From Pseudobdellovibrionaceae bacterium (lineage in GTDB: Bacteria > Bdellovibrionota > Bdellovibrionia > Bdellovibrionales > UBA1609): DNA of 64,000 bases. Of the stretch, positions 18,994-48,339 are shown piece after piece. The position numbers and the translations under genes are program-made. The notes below the pieces were generated by a model that saw nothing but the letters and a program-made list of their open reading frames with translations, was not told where the DNA came from and did no database searches. Within the stretch, counting starts at the first letter, position 1. Each line of letters opens with the position of its first letter. Where the stretch lies: contig JACKAM010000002.1 of NCBI GenBank assembly GCA_020635075.1, positions 199,802 to 263,801 of the forward strand, in the 5' to 3' direction.

Positions 18994-19025
18994 TCAACTG
19001 GTTCCTGCCAGTGATGCGGGAAAAC

Positions 19026-19051
19026 AAAAAGCCACCAAAAGGTGGCTTTTT
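19026..19051. terminator. bidirectional rho-independent terminator
   Basis: aaaaagccacc-aaaa-ggtggcttttt is flanked by A and T runs. It sits between convergent hpt and the 128-aa gene. Confidence 0.7.
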
Positions 19052-19075
19052 GTTTTTTCCAAAAAAACCTGGAAC

Positions 19076-26917: not shown

Positions 26918-27029
26918 TCAATCGGTTTAGGGGCTTTTGAGTCTTAAGACAATGAATTTCTTAAGATTCATTGCCCATATCCCTCCTTTTTTCTAGAATA
27001 ATGGCCATCGATTACCGGGACCTGGAAAT

Positions 27030-30000
27030 ATGCGTTCGATCATTGGATTTTTTGCTAAAGAACATCTCCTCGGCAATCTGCTCACTGTCCTGATCATCAT
27101 CACCGGCGTCTTTACCATATTCACCATTCGCCGTGATATCTGGCCAAATGTGCAATTCAATTTGACCACTGTCTCCACCTTTCTGGGCGGGGCATCTCCT
27201 GAGCAAGTGGAAAAACTGGTGATCAATCCGGTGGAAGAAGCCCTCCGGGAAGTGGATGGAATCAAGAAGGTTTTTTCCACGGCGACCGAGGGCCGGGCCG
27301 TTGTCGTCGCCCAACTCGATCCCGATGCTCGCAACCCAGACAAAACCAATTCCGACATCCAACAAGCCATTGACCGCATTGACTCTCTGCCTTCATCTGC
27401 TGACAAACCGGTAATCTATGCCATCGAGGCAGGCCGTGAACCAGTGATTGAAGTCACCGTCACTGGCGAGAAAAATCCCATCGAAGTGCGCAACGCTGCC
27501 AAATTTGTCGCCGATGAACTGAGCCTGGAAAATTTGGTTTCAAAGGTCACCAAGCGCGGCTACGATAAAAGAGAATTTGTGGTCGAAGCCGACCCCGTGA
27601 AGCTGGCAAGACGAAGAGTTCCTTTGTCAGCTCTTATACAATCAATTGAGTCACGCAACATCTCCCTCCCTGGTGGCAGTATACAGAACAATGCAGGCGT
27701 GGAAGTACTCGTGCGAACCGAGGGTGAGTACTCATCGGCCGAAGAAATCGGACGTACTGTGATCTTGGCCAATGAGGCTGGGTATGGCACCCGTGTTCGG
27801 GACGTAGCCACTGTCACCGAAAGCCTAGCTCCTCCCGAAAGGCTATACCGCACCGACGGTGAAGCTGGAATCAATATGATTGTTGCCAAAAAGCAAAATG
27901 CCGATGCCATTGAACTGGTGGAAATTGTTCGCAATAAGGTGGAGCAGTTAAAGTCGAAGGTGCCTGCGAGCGTGCGCCTAGGCTTTTCCAATGACTTTAC
28001 CATTTATCTGGCCAACCGCCTTAACACCCTAAGCTCTAATCTGATGATCGGTCTCGTTCTTGTCATTCTTGTTCTTAGTCTATTCCTGCCCTGGCGGGTG
28101 ACTTTGGTCGTGGCTCTAGGAATTCCTATTGCCCTTTTTGCCTCCCTATCGACAGCTCAGTACTTTGATGTTTCGCTAAATCTTATCAGCTTGATTGGTT
28201 TGATTATCGTTTTGGGCATGCTGGTCGACGATGCCATTGTCGTCAGTGAAAACATCTGGCGTCACATCGAGGACGGAGAATCCTCAGAAAAGGCCATCAT
28301 TGAAGGGACCCGTGAAGTACTGGGGCCCGTACTGGCGTCCGTACTCACCACGGTTTCGGCCTTTGCGCCAATGATGTTCATGACTGGCATCTTTGGTGCT
28401 TTTGTCTTCCAAATTCCCCTTATGGTCATACTTGCGCTTTGCATTTCCCTATTTGAAGCCTTTTTGATCATGCCCTCCCACTTCGCCGCATGGGTGGTTC
28501 CATTTGTCAGTATTGAAAAACAGCAGGCGAAATCCGCCAACTGGTATACTCACCTCTCCGAAACCTATGCCAAATTTGTTTCCTGGAGTCTTACCAAACG
28601 CTACCTCATGCTCGGCCTGGCAGGACTAATGCTTGTTGGCTCCATCACTTTGATTTTTGTCACCGGCCGCTTTGTATTGTTCCCGCCAGGAAGTGTGGAG
28701 CTGATCTTTGTGTCTCTGGAAGCACCAACAGGGACCTCTCTGGAAAAAATGGTGGATTTGGTGACGCCGGTTGAAAATACAATCAACGAACTCCCTGACC
28801 ATGAACTACTGGACTTTATGACTTCGATTGGCATCATCCAGCAGGGCACCATTGATCCTCAAACTCGCCGGGGCTCCCACTACGCCCACATTCGGATCGC
28901 GCTGACATCCAAACTCAAACGAAGCCGAACAGCAACGGAGATAATCGAACAACTGCGCGCCTCGATTGGCCGGCCCGAAGGCTTCAATTCGATTTCATTT
29001 GAATTCGCCCGCGAGGGACCTCCCCAGGGACGACCGATTTCACTCAATGTTCTCGGTCCCGACTTTCAGACTCTACAGACTCTTGCTGGTCAAATCAAAA
29101 AGGAGTTGGGCGAAATTGAGGGGGTTGTCGATGTTCGCGATTCATTTGTTTTAGGAAAACCTGAATGGAATGTTCTTCCGCGCTTCGAAGAATCAGCGAC
29201 TCTTGGCCTTTCTGCTTCCGAAATCGCCCTAAGCGTACGCACGGCCTTTGAGGGAATCATTGCATCCTCCATTCGCGAGTTAGATGAAGAAGTAGATATC
29301 CGTGTGCGCCTGGCTGAGAAAAAGGGCGATGCCCAGACTCAGCTGGAAAACATCAAGATCGGCAATCGCTTAGGAAATCTTATACCTCTCTCCGCCATCG
29401 CCGATTTTAAACAGGAAAAAACACTAAGTGCCATTAATCACCTCCACCATCGCCGCTTAATCAATGTCAGTGCTGAAGTTCAACTTGAGAAGATAACGGC
29501 CAACGAAGTCACGACCAAAATTAAACCCAAAATGGCTGAGCTCACCAAGGGAATGTCCGAGTATTCAATCGATTTTGGTGGAGAGGACGAAGACACTGAG
29601 GAGTCCATGGCGGCTCTTGCACGTGCCTTTATTTTTGCCGCCTTTATTATTTTCTCCCTTCTGATCGTCACCTTTAAAAATCTGTTTCAGCCCATTCTTA
29701 TTCTCACTAGCATTCCCTTGGGGCTGATGGGAGTGATTATCGCAATGTTTCTTCACAATCGCCCTTTGAGTTTCATGGCCATGCTAGGGGTGATTGCCCT
29801 TGCCGGCGTCATCGTCAACAATGCCATTGTACTCATTGATTTTATCAATCGCCGCCGGGAGCAAGGGGACGACCTCAATACCTCCGTGGTAACCGCCGCC
29901 AAGGTCAGACTTCGACCAATCTTACTCACGACCGCAACGACCGTCAGCGGCCTCTTCCCCACGGCCTACGGCGAGCACTTCCAGAAGTATCTCGGAATTG

Positions 30001-30158
30001 GGGGCGGAGATCCGTTTATCGTTCCTATCGCGTTGGCTCTTGGCTGGGGTCTTGCCTTCGGCGCCATTCTCACCCTGATCTTCTTCCCCTCCTTTGTCCG
30101 CATCCTCGACGACATCCGCTCCCTCACCCGCAAATTCCTCCTCCGCCGTAGCCAGTGA
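27030..30158 (+). CDS. RND (AcrB/HAE family) efflux transporter, inner-membrane subunit
   Basis: 1042 aa with 12-TM RND topology and two large periplasmic loops. Typical VVSENI and AIVLIDF motifs. Confidence 0.9.
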   Translation: MRSIIGFFAKEHLLGNLLTVLIIITGVFTIFTIRRDIWPNVQFNLTTVSTFLGGASPEQVEKLVINPVEEALREVDGIKKVFSTATEGRAVVVAQLDPDARNPDKTNSDIQQAIDRIDSLPSSADKPVIYAIEAGREPVIEVTVTGEKNPIEVRNAAKFVADELSLENLVSKVTKRGYDKREFVVEADPVKLARRRVPLSALIQSIESRNISLPGGSIQNNAGVEVLVRTEGEYSSAEEIGRTVILANEAGYGTRVRDVATVTESLAPPERLYRTDGEAGINMIVAKKQNADAIELVEIVRNKVEQLKSKVPASVRLGFSNDFTIYLANRLNTLSSNLMIGLVLVILVLSLFLPWRVTLVVALGIPIALFASLSTAQYFDVSLNLISLIGLIIVLGMLVDDAIVVSENIWRHIEDGESSEKAIIEGTREVLGPVLASVLTTVSAFAPMMFMTGIFGAFVFQIPLMVILALCISLFEAFLIMPSHFAAWVVPFVSIEKQQAKSANWYTHLSETYAKFVSWSLTKRYLMLGLAGLMLVGSITLIFVTGRFVLFPPGSVELIFVSLEAPTGTSLEKMVDLVTPVENTINELPDHELLDFMTSIGIIQQGTIDPQTRRGSHYAHIRIALTSKLKRSRTATEIIEQLRASIGRPEGFNSISFEFAREGPPQGRPISLNVLGPDFQTLQTLAGQIKKELGEIEGVVDVRDSFVLGKPEWNVLPRFEESATLGLSASEIALSVRTAFEGIIASSIRELDEEVDIRVRLAEKKGDAQTQLENIKIGNRLGNLIPLSAIADFKQEKTLSAINHLHHRRLINVSAEVQLEKITANEVTTKIKPKMAELTKGMSEYSIDFGGEDEDTEESMAALARAFIFAAFIIFSLLIVTFKNLFQPILILTSIPLGLMGVIIAMFLHNRPLSFMAMLGVIALAGVIVNNAIVLIDFINRRREQGDDLNTSVVTAAKVRLRPILLTTATTVSGLFPTAYGEHFQKYLGIGGGDPFIVPIALALGWGLAFGAILTLIFFPSFVRILDDIRSLTRKFLLRRSQ

Positions 30159-30168
30159 CCATAGCTGT

Positions 30169-30309
30169 CCATAAATCCGTTCTCTAAATCCACCTCCCCA
30201 TAAATTCGGACGCGGGCTCCTTGCCCTCGCCGGCATCGCTGCGCGAACGCGTCCCGCTTGCCGGAGGTCCTCATTTATAGAGATGCGGATTTGGGGAACC
30301 CATTTCTGG
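30169..30309 (-). repeat. structured repeat copy 1 (core 30198-30280 in reverse orientation, own flanking imperfect stem)
   Basis: The reverse complement reads ctataaatgaGGACCTCCGGCAAGCGGGACGCGTTCgcgcagcgaTGCCGGCGAGGGCAAGGAGCCCGCGTCCGAATTTATG. Flanking arms at about 30181-30205 and 30274-30298 match in 19 of 25 positions. Confidence 0.85.
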
Positions 30310-30362
30310 ACCATTCTACTTCCTCGCTGGGAGGGAAAGAGTAATTGGGAAATCTACCTCTA

Positions 30363-30415
30363 TATTCCTCCTTCTAAAGCAAATCTAAATCTGTCCGGCT
30401 GCAGTTTTGTTTTTT
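30363..30415 (+). repeat. second repeat family (R2), copy a
   Basis: tattcctc...caaatc.taa.tctg....ctgcagttttgttttt is about 80% identical by eye to 30845-30896. Confidence 0.7.
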
Positions 30416-30526
30416 CGAATTTGTGGACCGGTCCTCTAGTTAGATGGCTGGCCTTTTTGTTATCCTTAGTTAATTCCCTACTCACTATCATTGTTCAGTT
30501 GCGGAAAAGTAGATGATGTTCAGGGA

Positions 30527-30660
30527 GGGGTCATTGAGATCCGTCTTTCTGTAAATGAAGACCTCCGACAAGCGGGACGCGTTCACAGACGAAGTCCGTG
30601 ATGTCGGCGAGGGCAGGAGCCCGTGTCTGAATTTATAGGAAGGCGGATCTCAATGACCCC
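30527..30660 (+). repeat. structured repeat copy 2 (core about 30553-30639 inside a 30-bp stem)
   Basis: Arms are ggggtcattgagatccgtctttctgtaaat (30527-30556) and atttataggaaggcggatctcaatgacccc (30631-30660). There are four mismatches, all G-U compatible if read as plus-strand RNA. Confidence 0.9.
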
Positions 30661-30735
30661 TTACTGGACGGCTACGTTCGCGGGCGAAGCCCAGCGATGT
30701 CGGCGAGGGCAGGAGCCCATGTCTGAATTTATAGG
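30640..30735 (+). repeat. structured repeat copy 3 (96-bp tandem unit, left part of core replaced)
   Basis: Shares the 3' 40 nt GATGTCGGCGAGGGCAGGAGCCC.TGTCTGAATTTATAGG. Hairpin is cgcgggc-gaa-gccc(a)gcg. Confidence 0.9.
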
Positions 30736-30830
30736 AAGGCGGATCTCAATGACCCCTTACTGGACGGCTACGTTCGCGGACAAGGTCCGTGATGCCGGCG
30801 AGGGCAGGAGCCCGTGTCTGAGTTCATAAG
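30736..30830 (+). repeat. structured repeat copy 4 (95-bp tandem unit)
   Basis: The first 43 nt are identical to copy 3. The hairpin differs (cgcggac-aag-gtccgtg). The tail is GATGCCGGCGAGGGCAGGAGCCCGTGTCTGAGTTCATAAG. Confidence 0.9.
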
Positions 30831-30844
30831 AAACCCACTCCTTG

Positions 30845-30896
30845 TATTCCTCTACCTACAACAAATCCTAATCTGCCAAACTGCAGTTTTGTTTTT
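30845..30896 (+). repeat. second repeat family (R2), copy b
   Basis: Matches 30363-30415. Its 3' end (tttgttttt) forms the base of the copy-5 outer stem. Confidence 0.7.
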
Positions 30897-31037
30897 AGAG
30901 TCCACGGAGTGGCTTTCCTATGAAAGAAGACCTCCGACAAGCGGGACGCGTTCACGGACGAAGTCCGTGATGTCGGCGAGGGCAGGAGCCCGCGTCTGAG
31001 TTCATAGGGAAGCCACTCCGTGGACTCTAAAAACAAA
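30888..31037 (+). repeat. structured repeat copy 5 (core about 30925-31000 inside a 37-bp stem)
   Basis: Arms are tttgtttttagagtccacggagtggctttcctatgaa (30888-30924) and ttcatagggaagccactccgtggactctaaaaacaaa (31001-31037), with one U-G position. Perfect inner hairpin cacggac-gaa-gtccgtg. The element ends 16 nt from the motB stop. Confidence 0.9.
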
Positions 31038-31053
31038 TCAAAGATTGTTCAGA

Positions 31054-31986
31054 TTATTTGTTGCGCCTTGCACGCCACCGCGCCCGCGGATCATTAGTAT
31101 CGAACTTATCGCCCTTCTTCCGATCCGTCAGCTGATTGACAAAGTTGTCGTAGGGCGACTTGTCGGTATCAGATTTGCCGAAAACATCATCCAATTGCCG
31201 CGGCTTTCGCCCGTCTTTGGTGAAGTCCTTTTGCTTGACCTTAAAACGAATCACTCCATTGTCAACCTTCTGCCCAGGCGCAAGCGTACCGGCGACCTTG
31301 ACCTGGGATTTCCCAAACACATCCACCGATCCGTGTTCCAAGGATGACTGAATTTTTTGGGAAACCAAGTCTAATCTCTGTTCGGCCACTCGACGAGCAT
31401 CCCCTTTGTCCTTGGTGCGAACGGTTTGGTCAAAGATGGTGGAATCAACAAAGACATTTGAGTCTTCAAGTCCCGAGGTGATTGCCTTCAATTTCTCCAT
31501 TACGTCTACAAAATGAGCTTGGGGCTCAGCCGTGCCATAGCCAAACAATTGGTCGGCGGGAATCTCAAAAAATACTTCGTCGGCATTGACTTCCACATTT
31601 TGCGCAATGTCTCCAAGCTGGTCGGCAATGTGGTGAAGAACGATTTTCTTTGATCCCATTCCCATAATGTTGGGGGTAAAATCCGTAGGTGTAACAAAGG
31701 CCTGAAAGAATTTGAGTGGCTCATTGATGAGGTCGAGGAACAACTTTTCCAGAGTCAACTCAACTCCATAGTTGGAGAAGTTGTACTCAATGATACTAGG
31801 GGTGGAGAAATAGTCTGCAATATTCTTTTTCACCTGCTCAGATTGACTGATTAGCCACATCACAAGAAAAAAGGCCATCATAGAAGTCATAAAGTCGGCA
31901 AAGGCCACCTTCCAGGAACCACCATGTGCTCCTGCGGCTTGCACGTTAATCTTTTTGATTACCACTATGGGCTGTTTTTCAGCCAC
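31054..31986 (-). CDS. motB: flagellar motor stator protein MotB
   Basis: The N-terminus ([24 protein letters not shown]) contains the conserved Asp-bearing TM helix. Lies immediately downstream of motA. Confidence 0.8.
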
Positions 31987-47685: not shown

Positions 47686-47792
47686 GGTTAGGTGCCTATC
47701 TACTTTTTTGGATGCACGGTAATAAAAAAGGAAGGGTTGAACCCTTCCTTTTCTATTACCGTGCATCCAAAAAAGTAGATAGGCACCTAACC
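47686..47792. repeat. 107-bp near-perfect palindrome with a terminator-like core
   Basis: The left half 47686-47739 is the reverse complement of 47740-47792 with a single mismatch (A/G near 47724). The centre, aaaaaaggaagggttgaacccttcctttt, looks like a bidirectional intrinsic terminator. It ends 5 nt from the stop of the 180-aa OMP gene. Confidence 0.9.
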
Positions 47793-47796
47793 TACA

Positions 47797-48339
47797 TCAG
47801 AACCAAGCCTTCGCAGCAATATTGAAGTTCAAGGCCTGAAAACCTTCAGCCTCCACTCCGCTGTCGCTCGAGGACTCAATCGACATCCAGCTACCTTCAA
47901 CTCCCAAGGAGAAATTGTCGTTGAGAAACTTGTCGTAGCCAAAGACAAGGCCAAAGTGAGTGGGGCTACTGGAAAAGGTTGTTCCCACATCCAGTTTTGT
48001 CGTACCAACACGCAAGCCAATAAAAGCGCCGTCGGCCACACCCTCAAAGTGGAAGGATCCCTCGATACCATAAAGGGCATAGTTGAAGTCCACTTTACTG
48101 CCGCTTACGTCTTCCTCTTTTGAAGACGTTAAAAAGTAAGCGCCAAAACCAAGCTCACCATCCAGGCGGGCTCCGCCAATCACTCCGTACGCTAAACGCG
48201 AAGATGTGTCATCCGCGTTGGGCACACTAAGTCCTGCTGTGGCTCCAACATATCCCTTGGCCTGAGCCAATGCGGGCGTAGAAGTAAAAACCAGGGCCAT
48301 TGCCATTCCTGCCAAAACCAAAAACCACGACTTTTTCAT
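47797..48339 (-). CDS. small outer-membrane beta-barrel protein
   Basis: 180 aa with signal peptide ...TPALAQA, alternating strands and C-terminal AKAWF. Confidence 0.65.
   Translation of the reverse strand: MKKSWFLVLAGMAMALVFTSTPALAQAKGYVGATAGLSVPNADDTSSRLAYGVIGGARLDGELGFGAYFLTSSKEEDVSGSKVDFNYALYGIEGSFHFEGVADGAFIGLRVGTTKLDVGTTFSSSPTHFGLVFGYDKFLNDNFSLGVEGSWMSIESSSDSGVEAEGFQALNFNIAAKAWF

Follow-up and report, generated by a model that had tools for sequence, protein, structure and literature searches.

The stretch of DNA analyzed here, 64,000 nucleotides in full (the window), contains an 895-bp gap (positions 30159 to 31053) between a gene for an AcrB-like transporter and a MotB-like gene. 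A covariance model of the repeat family described below gave five matches in the whole window, all of them inside this gap. The genes, the repeat copies with their cmsearch matches, and a second pair of repeats are arranged as follows.

27030 to 30158, plus strand: AcrB/RND-type transporter gene, left neighbor (Pfam ACR_tran, 1e-176)
30179 to 30299, minus strand: copy 1, full hairpin (fold, −58.6 kcal/mol; z, −3.9)
30200 to 30277, minus strand: c1, cmsearch match of copy 1 (77 bits)
30363 to 30414, plus strand: D3a, second repeat, 79% identical to 30845 to 30896
30518 to 30669, plus strand: copy 2, full hairpin (fold, −91.3 kcal/mol; z, −12)
30552 to 30636, plus strand: c2, cmsearch match of copy 2 (93 bits)
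30647 to 30732, plus strand: copy 3 (c3), partial, first unit of a 96-nt tandem duplication (cmsearch, 42 bits)
30743 to 30827, plus strand: copy 4 (c4), partial, second unit of the 96-nt tandem duplication (cmsearch, 42.5 bits)
30845 to 30896, plus strand: D3b, partner of D3a, overlapping the outer left arm of copy 5, which is degenerate
30869 to 31056, plus strand: copy 5, full hairpin (fold, −90.9 kcal/mol; z, −10.5)
30921 to 31005, plus strand: c5, cmsearch match of copy 5 (94 bits)
31054 to 31986, minus strand: MotB-like gene, right neighbor (Pfam MotB_plug)

A preliminary description of this DNA had reported a nest of structured core copies in the gap. The nest is real and consists of three full and two 5′-truncated copies of a core of ∼72 nt, the 5′ half of which occurs exactly three times and the 3′ half four times (∼0 and 0.29 occurrences expected by chance). 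Copy 1 (core at ∼30206 to 30271, minus strand; arms at ∼30179 to 30205 and 30272 to 30299) begins some 20 nt past the AcrB stop codon with its core antisense to AcrB, and it recurs in an independent Logan assembly (L001). Copy 2 (core at ∼30558 to 30630) has 45-nt arms at 30518 to 30562 and 30625 to 30669 (82%) within which a 14-bp closing extension containing a tandem G·A is conserved. Copy 3 retains the central hairpin and the 3′ half and has the right arm of copy 2 in place of the 5′ half; the 93-nt units of the tandem duplication that forms copies 3 and 4 align at 95%, and the true 5′ half is absent from both. Copy 5 (core at ∼30927 to 30999) is antisense to MotB and has near-perfect 37-nt arms at 30888 to 30924 and 31001 to 31037 (37 nt at 97% by BLAST). 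Its degenerate outer extension (30869 to 30887 and 31038 to 31056; 63-nt arms, 79%) reaches the MotB stop codon (TAATCTG/CAGATTA), and D3a may be an orphan copy of its outer left arm. The central hairpins differ between copies, as described previously, and the distances given to the two flanking stop codons (11 nt and 16 to 17 nt) are correct. The outer stems of copies 1, 2, and 5 had been considered mutually unrelated, which does not hold: the hairpins of copies 1 and 2 are paralogous, arms included (roughly 65 to 70%), and copy 5 alone has different arms.

The open reading frames in the gap (61 to 77 amino acids) have no Pfam match, and a protein-coding gap was therefore rejected. The gap yielded no sigma-70-like promoter. 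Homologues of the MotB-like gene in Bdellovibrionaceae MAGs are named MotB. Compared with related genomes, the AcrB-like gene and the repeat nest are an insertion, and the nest is located at a synteny break. The relatives have MotB followed directly by RNase_T at this locus and lack AcrB entirely, so the preinsertion sequence could not be reconstructed. Logan contigs terminate within the nest.

Several other kinds of loci were considered and rejected. The spacings between copies (96, 96, and 178 nt), the one inverted copy, and repeats that are 72-nt junction folds speak against a CRISPR array, in agreement with the earlier assessment that the nest is neither a CRISPR array nor a classical MITE. 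Integron attC sites have the opposite architecture, the repeat having a conserved center and variable ends. Against a retron msr/msd, the genes bordering the gap are AcrB-like and MotB-like, the open reading frames inside it are without a Pfam match, and the family copies lie amid unrelated housekeeping genes.

Core structure and family

Either strand of the core can be folded as a Y-shaped three-way junction with four parts, of which the closing helix is one. A second helix, CTCCGGCA/TGCCGG(C)GAG, holds an internal loop that is conserved (AAGCGTGAMGCGTT) and an apical hairpin that varies, and a further hairpin (GGGC-AGGA-GCCC) is invariant. The closing helix is conserved over 5 to 14 bp within subfamilies only and covaries between them (GGGGAC/GTCCCC, CAAGA/TCTTG, and, in the window, YTRTRAAWGARGAC). 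The core is conserved and structured, as first proposed, and its helices stay paired through double substitutions. Across the family copies, pairing was kept in 98.2% of cells of the three-way junction, with double changes at 15 pairs, a result reached by 0 of 500 shuffles. G-U cells are rare (3/490), and the unpaired core nucleotides are highly conserved. At orthologous sites, the core diverges far less than its flanks, unpaired nucleotides included, and this fits a host function (RNA or protein binding) as well as it fits selection at the level of the element. A suggested pseudoknot between GACGCG and CGCGTC was rejected: its pairing rate of 80% of cells is equaled by 435 of 500 shuffles, it shows no covariation, and it overlaps the closing helix.

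Beyond the window, 20 core copies were found in Pseudobdellovibrionaceae/Bdellovibrionales MAGs and metagenomes. The 21 full copies that were scored (the window, 14 loci from species-representative genomes, and 4 metagenome contigs) have cmsearch E values of 1e-11 to 1e-25; a search of orthologous loci added L041, giving 19 nonwindow full copies, and a palindromic variant (L012) completes the set. Most copies were ascertained through an exact 20-mer match, so the invariance of the 20-mer stretch and the apparent taxonomic restriction are partly by construction. No match for the whole gap or the cores was found in phages or plasmids, and both core halves gave 0 matches in viral_contigs. The literature searched contained no description of the core element or of Bdellovibrio intergenic repeats. 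The ∼72-nt core is a previously undescribed repeat family, found only in Bdellovibrio-like bacteria with the restriction partly by construction.

The copies lie among unrelated housekeeping genes and occupy nonorthologous sites in different genomes. They are extragenic, mostly between convergent genes, with the core mostly 30 to 55 nt downstream of genes or tRNAs. The core is almost always antisense relative to the upstream gene: an earlier remark on the orientation of the outermost window copies generalizes to 13 independent loci. At orthologous sites, the core (90 to 96% identity) outlasts both the arms (47 to 83%) and the 200-nt flanks (38 to 75%). By our own count, the cores of L041 and L043, a pair found without a pattern search, are ∼96% identical.

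Arms and their flanks

Nearly every core copy is enclosed by its own near-perfect inverted repeat of 26 to 67 nt, which is locus specific in sequence. In family loci totaling ∼95 kb, inverted repeats of at least 18 nt within 160 nt were confined to the core-flanking arms, and ∼39 kb of related DNA lacking the core had none. In loci with an arm that overlaps the end of a gene, the arm farther from the gene duplicates, in inverted orientation, the flank next to the gene. The distal arm of L016 is an inverted copy of the 33-nt trailer and the last 20 nt of a tRNA-Arg gene, the arms of L009 and L010 extend 7 and 4 nt into the 3′ ends of tRNA genes, and the L020 arm contains the stop codon of the upstream gene. 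A conserved core with nonhomologous stems had been taken to indicate a structured RNA or ribozyme; these stems are instead inverted duplications of the local flank. No flank sequence is shared between loci except orthologous ones, and inspection of three junctions (L009, L010, and L016) revealed no direct repeat outside the arms. Spacer-like arms of phage or plasmid origin were rejected, as no matches were found and the arms are copies of the local flank.

The proximal arms often start at the very end of a gene. The 50 nt beyond the arm on the 5′ side of the core, as read in the preliminary description, show a C-over-G skew (281 C versus 181 G) that is strong in ∼6 of the 21 copies; since this skew was all that was found, an extra conserved module beside the element was rejected. 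An intrinsic (Rho-independent) terminator was likewise rejected: no promoter-like or terminator-like signals were found at the elements, the terminator scan included, and the sequence past the distal arm is not T rich in either orientation.

Comparison of orthologous loci indicates how the arms change. Between L007 and L021, five paired arm positions differ, four of them as compensated double changes, including two transversion pairs; L028 and L031 differ by two double changes. In L022, ∼13 nt of one arm has been lost relative to L015. Arm complementarity is kept via one-step double changes and otherwise decays, as in L022 and L031. In L012, an inverted copy of one core half stands in place of the other half, centered on the apical hairpin, and this variant is a copy-back palindrome. 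For L041 and L043, a core flipped between homologous arms was considered and rejected, as the similarity of their arms is not significant (P = 0.26 and 0.52); either independent insertion or inversion may account for the difference. One orthologous site, L040, has the same ORF-ORF-tRNA-Arg(tcg) order with neither core nor palindrome. Neither a recent insertion polymorphism nor an empty site in a close relative was recovered, and the insertion event itself is therefore not reconstructed.

The order of events could in principle be reversed, with long palindromes, such as overextended terminator hairpins, arising first at gene 3′ ends and a mobile core inserting specifically into the single-stranded tips of the resulting hairpins or cruciforms. 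Insertion at palindromes has precedents, since IS1397 and IS110-type elements insert at REP palindromes. Cores do lie exactly at the centers of their palindromes, and the window has one core-less 107-bp near-perfect palindrome, 4 nt past a stop codon, with a terminator-like center. Nevertheless, this is a single core-less long palindrome against more than 20 core-bearing ones in the ∼200 kb examined, the orthologous tRNA-Arg site in L040 is without a palindrome, and a preexisting 53-bp palindrome including 20 nt of a tRNA gene (as L016 would require) is implausible. We regard this order of events as very improbable.

Structured RNA or DNA palindrome

No Rfam 15 family matched. At an E value of ≤10, the gap gave only two chance matches (14 and 13 bits), in the flanking AcrB coding sequence; the whole window gave 0 matches at the gathering threshold, and the L016 and L020 copies gave only subthreshold hairpin-like matches. 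Known RNA families (hammerhead, twister, pistol, hatchet, HDV-like, and hairpin ribozymes, 6S, Y RNA, and Bdellovibrio/Deltaproteobacteria motifs) were rejected on this basis, so a structured RNA, if this is one, would be new. As such, it could be a 3′-untranslated-region element, a small noncoding RNA, or a ribozyme with the Y-core as its active or protein-binding part, and the long outer helix would be a selected double-stranded RNA clamp, for instance one that gives protection from 3′ exonucleases or is processed by RNase III. The paired and covarying three-way junction, the conserved unpaired nucleotides, the slower divergence of the core at orthologous sites, and the consistent orientation relative to the upstream gene all fit this explanation. 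So do two features of the window: copy 2 folds better on one strand than on the other (−91 versus −75 kcal/mol), and the tandem G·A is conserved, within the window subfamily, on the strand read in the preliminary description.

These signs of strandedness do not extend to the family. The strands have equal folding energies with both RNA and DNA parameters (mean difference, 0.3 kcal/mol; the strand read in the preliminary description is more stable in 10 of 21 copies), and no strand preference was found by this measure. The mismatches in the copy 2 and copy 5 stems had been described as all G-U compatible, which is only roughly so: copy 2 has five G·T and no A·C mismatches, yet also three purine·purine ones, and the 37-bp perfect part of copy 5 has one T·G and a conserved G·A/A·G internal loop. 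Family-wide, arm mismatches are 22 G·T versus 16 A·C, which shows no G·U-versus-A·C asymmetry, and the core has almost no G-U pairs. In the window, the strand that G·A and G·U favor runs antisense to the neighboring genes. The arms are demonstrably duplicated DNA, in some cases with part of a tRNA, and a tRNA-derived arm in a tRNA precursor would sequester the tRNA 3′ end; they decay in some orthologues, and no promoter-like or terminator-like signal accompanies them. The truncated tandem copies and the palindromized copy are typical of repeat DNA, and the pseudoknot is unsupported.

Template switching is documented to create perfect stems with one-step (PMC8794818) and multibase (PMC8794818; PMC8604942) compensatory changes; covariation therefore cannot discriminate RNA from DNA here. 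Overall, the evidence favors palindrome dynamics at the DNA level over a strand-specific RNA, and we consider a functional structured RNA unlikely. The BIME/REP-like 3′-end element that the preliminary description had kept as a fallback fits better.

Equal folding of the strands and exclusively Watson-Crick pairing would also suit a cis-acting DNA site of the host, where a nucleoid, topoisomerase, or replication/termination protein binds a cruciform or hairpin whose structure is under selection and which is immobile today. BIMEs bind gyrase, IHF, and Pol I. Conservation of the core at orthologous positions across species and its extragenic location, mostly between convergent genes, agree with such a role. 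We nonetheless find it quite improbable, as copies occupy nonorthologous sites and the orthologous L040 site is empty; nests, truncated copies, and the position at a rearrangement breakpoint suggest a repeat that proliferates, and a gene orientation bias is unexpected for a symmetric DNA structure.

Interpretation and relation to known repeats

Our preferred reading, held with slightly better than even confidence, is that the gap is a nest of a small, noncoding, interspersed REP/MITE-like DNA repeat specific to Pseudobdellovibrionaceae/Bdellovibrionales, with arms generated by copy-back (template-switch) duplication. Copy-back DNA synthesis would both make and maintain the arms: having just copied the stable Y-hairpin, a nascent strand would fold back and copy its own flank. 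The core may have spread and been kept conserved via a trans-acting protein that recognizes its folded form, a putative candidate being a transposase or nuclease that acts on single-stranded DNA, like those that move REP/REPIN or IS200-type ends. Tandem and inverted duplication would then have given the five-copy nest at the synteny breakpoint. Some observations sit less easily with this reading. Among the ∼16 window proteins scanned against Pfam, neither a transposase nor another mobilizing enzyme was found. Ordinary replication template switching also leaves unexplained both the antisense orientation of the core and the start of the proximal arms at gene ends.

In a more novel reading, the core would be a mobile element of a new kind, whose integration gives a long inverted (20- to 55-nt) rather than direct duplication of one target flank, through hairpin-primed copy-back synthesis from the folded Y-core coupled to the transcription direction of the upstream gene. 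We hold this only tentatively, as an unlikely reading; if true, it would imply that Bdellovibrionota have an unrecognized transposition chemistry and partner enzyme. No less novel is the alternative that a dedicated host protein binds the Y-core as a new RNA or single-stranded-DNA ligand, with a functional double-stranded RNA or DNA clamp.

The Y-core repeat can be compared with several known elements. REP/BIME and REPIN sequences share with it an extragenic, multicopy distribution at gene 3′ ends and in convergent gaps, the capacity to form hairpins that are sometimes clustered in opposite orientations, conservation across related species, and presumably recognition as folded single-stranded DNA. 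Most Y-core copies lie in convergent gaps or just past a tRNA or ORF. REPINs are mobilized by RAYT, an HUH/Y1 transposase. The conserved unit of REP is, however, a 20- to 40-nt imperfect palindrome, whereas the Y-core is a ∼72-nt three-way junction; REPINs combine conserved arms with a variable loop, whereas here a conserved apex carries locus-unique arms, and no conserved GTAG-type 5′ tetranucleotide was seen, nor was a RAYT gene identified among the ∼16 window proteins scanned.

Bacterial MITEs (Correia/NEMIS, ERIC, RUP, BOX, and others) and the stem-loop families cataloged by Cozzuto et al. 2008 (PMC2267715) are likewise small, noncoding, interspersed, and intergenic, with stable stem-loops, and the Y-core repeat has subfamilies with 5 to 14 bp of conserved terminal complementarity. 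The terminal inverted repeats of MITEs are conserved, and their target-site duplications are short and direct, whereas the Y-core repeat has a long inverted duplication of one flank just outside the core, and no direct duplication was seen at the three junctions inspected. Template-switch (quasipalindrome) mutagenesis, which creates and maintains hairpins (Monttinen & Loytynoja 2022, PMC8794818; PMC8604942), resembles the process proposed here in yielding reverse-complement copies of adjacent sequence, perfect stems from a single event, multibase compensatory changes, and homogenized arms. That process is known as sporadic, whereas here it would act on every copy of one family with arms of 26 to 67 nt, and the Y-core arms are linked to a fixed orientation relative to the neighboring gene.

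A further analogy may lie outside bacteria: the inverted terminal repeat of parvoviruses and AAV is a T- or Y-shaped self-priming hairpin, a long stem capped by two small hairpin arms at a three-way junction, much like the Y-core repeat. A fold of this type can prime copy-back synthesis of the adjoining strand. The analogy is one of mechanism only: the sequences are not similar, the Y-core resides in intergenic regions of the chromosome, and neither a Rep gene nor a nicking site was identified.

In the literature searched, no REP, BIME, REPIN, or MITE sequence is described as having a conserved apex and locus-specific arms that were copied from the flank, and the Y-core family adds a repeat to a poorly studied lineage of predatory bacteria. 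Because nearly every copy has a long inverted flank duplication, a copy-back or template-switch origin of hairpins becomes directly testable. The family also carries a caution for motif discovery, in that perfect stems with Watson-Crick covariation can stem from DNA mechanics and not from a functional RNA. In genomes, Y-core elements break short-read assemblies and mark synteny breakpoints, and their 50-bp duplexes beside tRNA and mRNA 3′ ends could affect processing.

Organization and synteny of the window nest

The sole large noncoding gap of the 64-kb window (30159-31053) lies between convergent AcrB-type and MotB-like genes and holds five copies (c1 to c5) of a ~72-nt repeat unit, the core, each full copy being enclosed by a long inverted repeat (the arms).

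Genes and full core copies at the gap
27030-30158, + strand: AcrB-type transporter gene, left neighbor of the gap, convergent with the MotB-like gene
30200-30277, - strand: c1, full core copy with a 1-nt insertion
30552-30636, + strand: c2, full core copy
30921-31005, + strand: c5, full core copy
31054-31986, - strand: MotB-like gene, right neighbor of the gap

The core recognized in the preliminary description was borne out by exact counts. Its 5′ half (GACCTCCGRCAAGCGGGACGCGTTC) occurs three times in the window versus none expected by chance, and four exact matches to its 3′ half (GGCGAGGGCAGGAGCCC) compare with ~0.29 expected, in addition to the minus-strand c1. A 96-nt tandem duplication accounts for c3 and c4, one per unit, and in both the right arm of c2 stands in place of a true 5′ half. 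Folded with their outer stems, c2 and c5 reach −91 kcal/mol (z about −10 to −12). The claim that the stems are unrelated among copies fails for c1 and c2, which are paralogous, arms included, at roughly 65 to 70%, and some of the mismatches, all previously thought to be G-U compatible, are of other kinds. The nest has been reshaped by tandem duplication (c3 and c4) and inverted duplication (c1 and c2).

A second direct repeat of 52 nt (79% identical) links 30363-30414 to 30845-30896; the latter overlaps the outer left arm of c5, which is degenerate, and the former is perhaps an arm orphaned in an earlier rearrangement. Two short-read contigs with the same AcrB gene (Logan assemblies of SRR17907852 and SRR17907851) end within c2 and ~40 nt past the AcrB gene, ahead of c1, respectively: the element breaks short-read assemblies.

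In relatives whose MotB is 74 to 80% identical (loci L033 to L038 compared), the gene order is MotA-MotB-RNase_T-peptidase A8-GGDEF, and the MotB-RNase_T gap spans 30 to 85 nt, with neither AcrB nor the element. In the window, the AcrB gene, which has no adjoining MFP or OMP partner, and the 895-bp nest intervene between MotB and RNase_T. Because both are absent from the relatives' junction, the nest lies at a lineage-specific insertion or rearrangement junction. The sequence AAGAAATTCATTGTCTTAAG (~26930-26960), just upstream of RNase_T, resembles what would be left of the former MotB 3′ end, and the arrangement points to a lineage-specific insertion into the end of MotB.

Extent of the family, core fold, and orientation

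The Rfam comparison named as a check in the preliminary description returned no known family: nothing matched the gap even at an E value of ≤10, and there were 0 matches across the whole window at gathering thresholds. Scanning species-representative genomes for exact GYCGGCGAGGGCAGGAGCCC yielded 14 loci that are true homologues, each in a MAG of the Pseudobdellovibrionaceae/Bdellovibrionales, a narrow taxonomic range that, like the invariance of the searched stretch, is partly by construction, since the scans needed an exact 20- to 23-mer. The same scan also picked up GC-rich coding sequence from unrelated phyla by chance. Five further copies came from four contigs in a metagenome scan, and the viral_contigs, plasmid, and phage collections gave no match. 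Copies reached by other routes (c1, L023b, L029b, and L041; L numbers denote comparison loci, and a and b denote two copies in one locus) vary within the ascertained stretch. We found no description of the element in the searchable literature.

A three-way junction (hence Y-core) is supported by 21 aligned copies. It consists of a 5-bp closing helix; a helix (CTCCGGCA/TGCCGG(C)GAG) enclosing a variable apical hairpin and a 12-nt internal loop (AAGCGTGAMGCGTT) that is conserved; and an invariant hairpin, GGGC-AGGA-GCCC. Standard pairs fill 98.2% of cells, and both sides have changed in 15 of 24 pairs; the P1 variants are CCGGCA/TGCCGG, CCGACA/TGTCGG, and CCTGCA/TGCAGG. The observed pairing values were reached by 0 of 500 shuffles, and pairing falls to about 40% in slid controls. 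The pseudoknot suggested earlier was not upheld: 80% of its cells pair, yet 435 of 500 shuffles are equally good, and covariation is absent. One copy (L023, 5263-5372) has an extra 30-nt hairpin (GGTCGCCCTTT...AAAGGGCGACC) in place of the internal-loop segment TGAMGC, so the loop tolerates insertion.

The usual location of a copy is between convergent genes or directly past a gene or tRNA, with roughly 30 to 55 nt between core and gene end. Read in the orientation of the preliminary description, 13 independent loci have the core antisense to its upstream neighbor gene.

Loci with an antisense core
Window: c1 versus AcrB; c2-c5 block versus MotB
Elsewhere: L007, L009, L010, L015/L022, L016, L020, L023a, L023b, L027, L029a, L031/L028

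No clear sense-orientation case was found among the loci (L021, L024, and L041 are ambiguous), and all two-copy nests (window, L023, and L029) are arranged head to head. In two related species, cores of opposite orientation occupy one and the same convergent epimerase/pyrophosphatase gap (L041, 3480-3601; L043, 3470-3605), and their arms show no significant similarity (P = 0.26 and 0.52); this could be independent insertion or inversion.

Across the 21 copies, the 50 nt beyond the gene-distal arm (5′ in the same orientation) are C-rich and G-poor (281 C versus 181 G), with strong skew in L003, L010, L016, L024, L027, and c5. On the gene's strand, these tracts read as G-rich, SD-like runs (e.g., GGGGGGAGGTTTTGGGAGGG).

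Origin of the arms in the flank

Almost every copy has its own near-perfect inverted repeat of 26 to 67 nt, closing helix included; L022 is left with only a degenerate, indel-disrupted arm. Other than core arms, the family loci (~95 kb) contain no long inverted repeats, and ~39 kb of core-free DNA from related Bdellovibrionales had none. Three copies lie directly 3′ of tRNA genes (L009, L010, and L016). In L016, the distal arm, farther from the gene, repeats in reverse complement the 33-nt trailer together with the final 20 nt of tRNA-Arg, the tRNA sequence aaatccttccgggcgcgcca being copied as tggcgcgcccggaaggattt; the arms take in the last 7 tRNA nucleotides in L009 and the last 4 in L010. 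Because the 3′ end of a functional tRNA must be the original, copying ran from the proximal flank to the distal arm. In L020, the upstream gene's stop codon falls within the arm; in the window, the outer, degenerate arm of c5 extends to the MotB stop codon; and the proximal arm of L027 begins immediately past a stop codon.

In a related genome, the orthologous locus L040 shares the ORF-ORF-tRNA-Arg(tcg) order and lacks both core and palindrome, from which it follows that the arms come with the core. We consider it very unlikely that cores inserted into preexisting palindromes, a reading that could draw on a single core-less 107-bp palindrome at 47686-47792.

This near-perfect palindrome (53-nt arms, 98%, 1-nt center) lies 4 nt past the stop codon of an OMP beta-barrel gene (47797-48339, - strand) and is the sole core-less long inverted repeat in the ~200 kb examined. 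Its center, AAAAAAGGAAGGGTT-G-AACCCTTCCTTTTCT, resembles a bidirectional terminator with arms extended by ~35 bp per side. An ordinary bidirectional intrinsic terminator lies at 19021-19056 (AAAACAAAAAGCCACC / GGTGGCTTTTTGTTTT), and normal terminators of this genome are accordingly short-stemmed.

Strand symmetry, template switching, and the nature of the element

Arm mismatches in the 21 copies comprise 22 G·T, 16 A·C, and 49 others. G-U occurs in just 3 of 490 core cells, and the two core strands have equal folding energies with both RNA and DNA parameters. This is behavior at the DNA level rather than that of a strand-specific RNA. A functional strand-specific RNA, with which core conservation and the orientation bias would agree, is an unlikely reading, and a host DNA-structure site seems to us decidedly improbable.

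At orthologous filled sites in sister species, core identity is 95.9% (L007/L021), 94.5% (L015/L022), and 90.3% (L028/L031), or ~96%, 92.5%, and 86.5% without the ascertained 20-mer, as counted from the alignments; the arms are 47 to 83% and the 200-nt flanks 38 to 75% identical. The L041/L043 pair, obtained without a pattern search, differs by count at 3 of 73 core positions. Between the L007 and L021 arms, five paired positions differ; at four of them both sides have changed in compensation, two being C:G-to-G:C transversion pairs without a wobble intermediate, and the L028 and L031 arms differ by two double changes; such double changes arose in one step. The arms also decay, as L022 has lost ~13 nt of one arm. 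In a palindromic variant in L012 (6870-6990), an inverted copy of the 3′ core half, with an insertion in hairpin C, has taken the place of the 5′ half across the apical hairpin, as in textbook copy-back.

Replication template switching yields reverse-complement copies of adjacent sequence, producing perfect stems from one event as well as multibase compensatory changes (PMC8794818); arm homogenization and spacer inversion are added by a further report (PMC8604942). The patterns in the orthologues and L012 match such products. Covariation, previously taken as a sign of functional RNA, cannot serve as such a signature here, because template switching produces the same pattern (PMC8794818).

We lean, with somewhat better than even confidence, toward a new REP/MITE-like interspersed DNA element. 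Its Y-core would be conserved by the need for recognition by a presumed trans-acting protein, and the folded core would prime the copy-back/template-switch synthesis through which arms arise and are maintained; we infer this mechanism, the mobility, and the partner enzyme. The antisense rule for core orientation, and the tendency of proximal arms to begin exactly where the gene ends, are not accounted for by the model.

An intrinsic terminator was rejected because the element has no U-tract, and a CRISPR array, an attC site, and a retron were each rejected. Like REP/BIME/REPIN sequences and MITEs, the element is extragenic, hairpin forming, and multicopy. Unlike in REP/BIME, its conserved unit is no short palindrome; compared with REPINs, the conserved and variable parts are swapped; and compared with MITEs, conserved long terminal repeats seem to be lacking, with conservation at the ends limited to a 5- to 14-bp closing helix within subfamilies, and no direct target duplication was seen at the three junctions inspected (L009, L010, and L016). 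We class it with the interspersed stem-loop repeats, with an arm structure that is unusual and mechanistically interesting.
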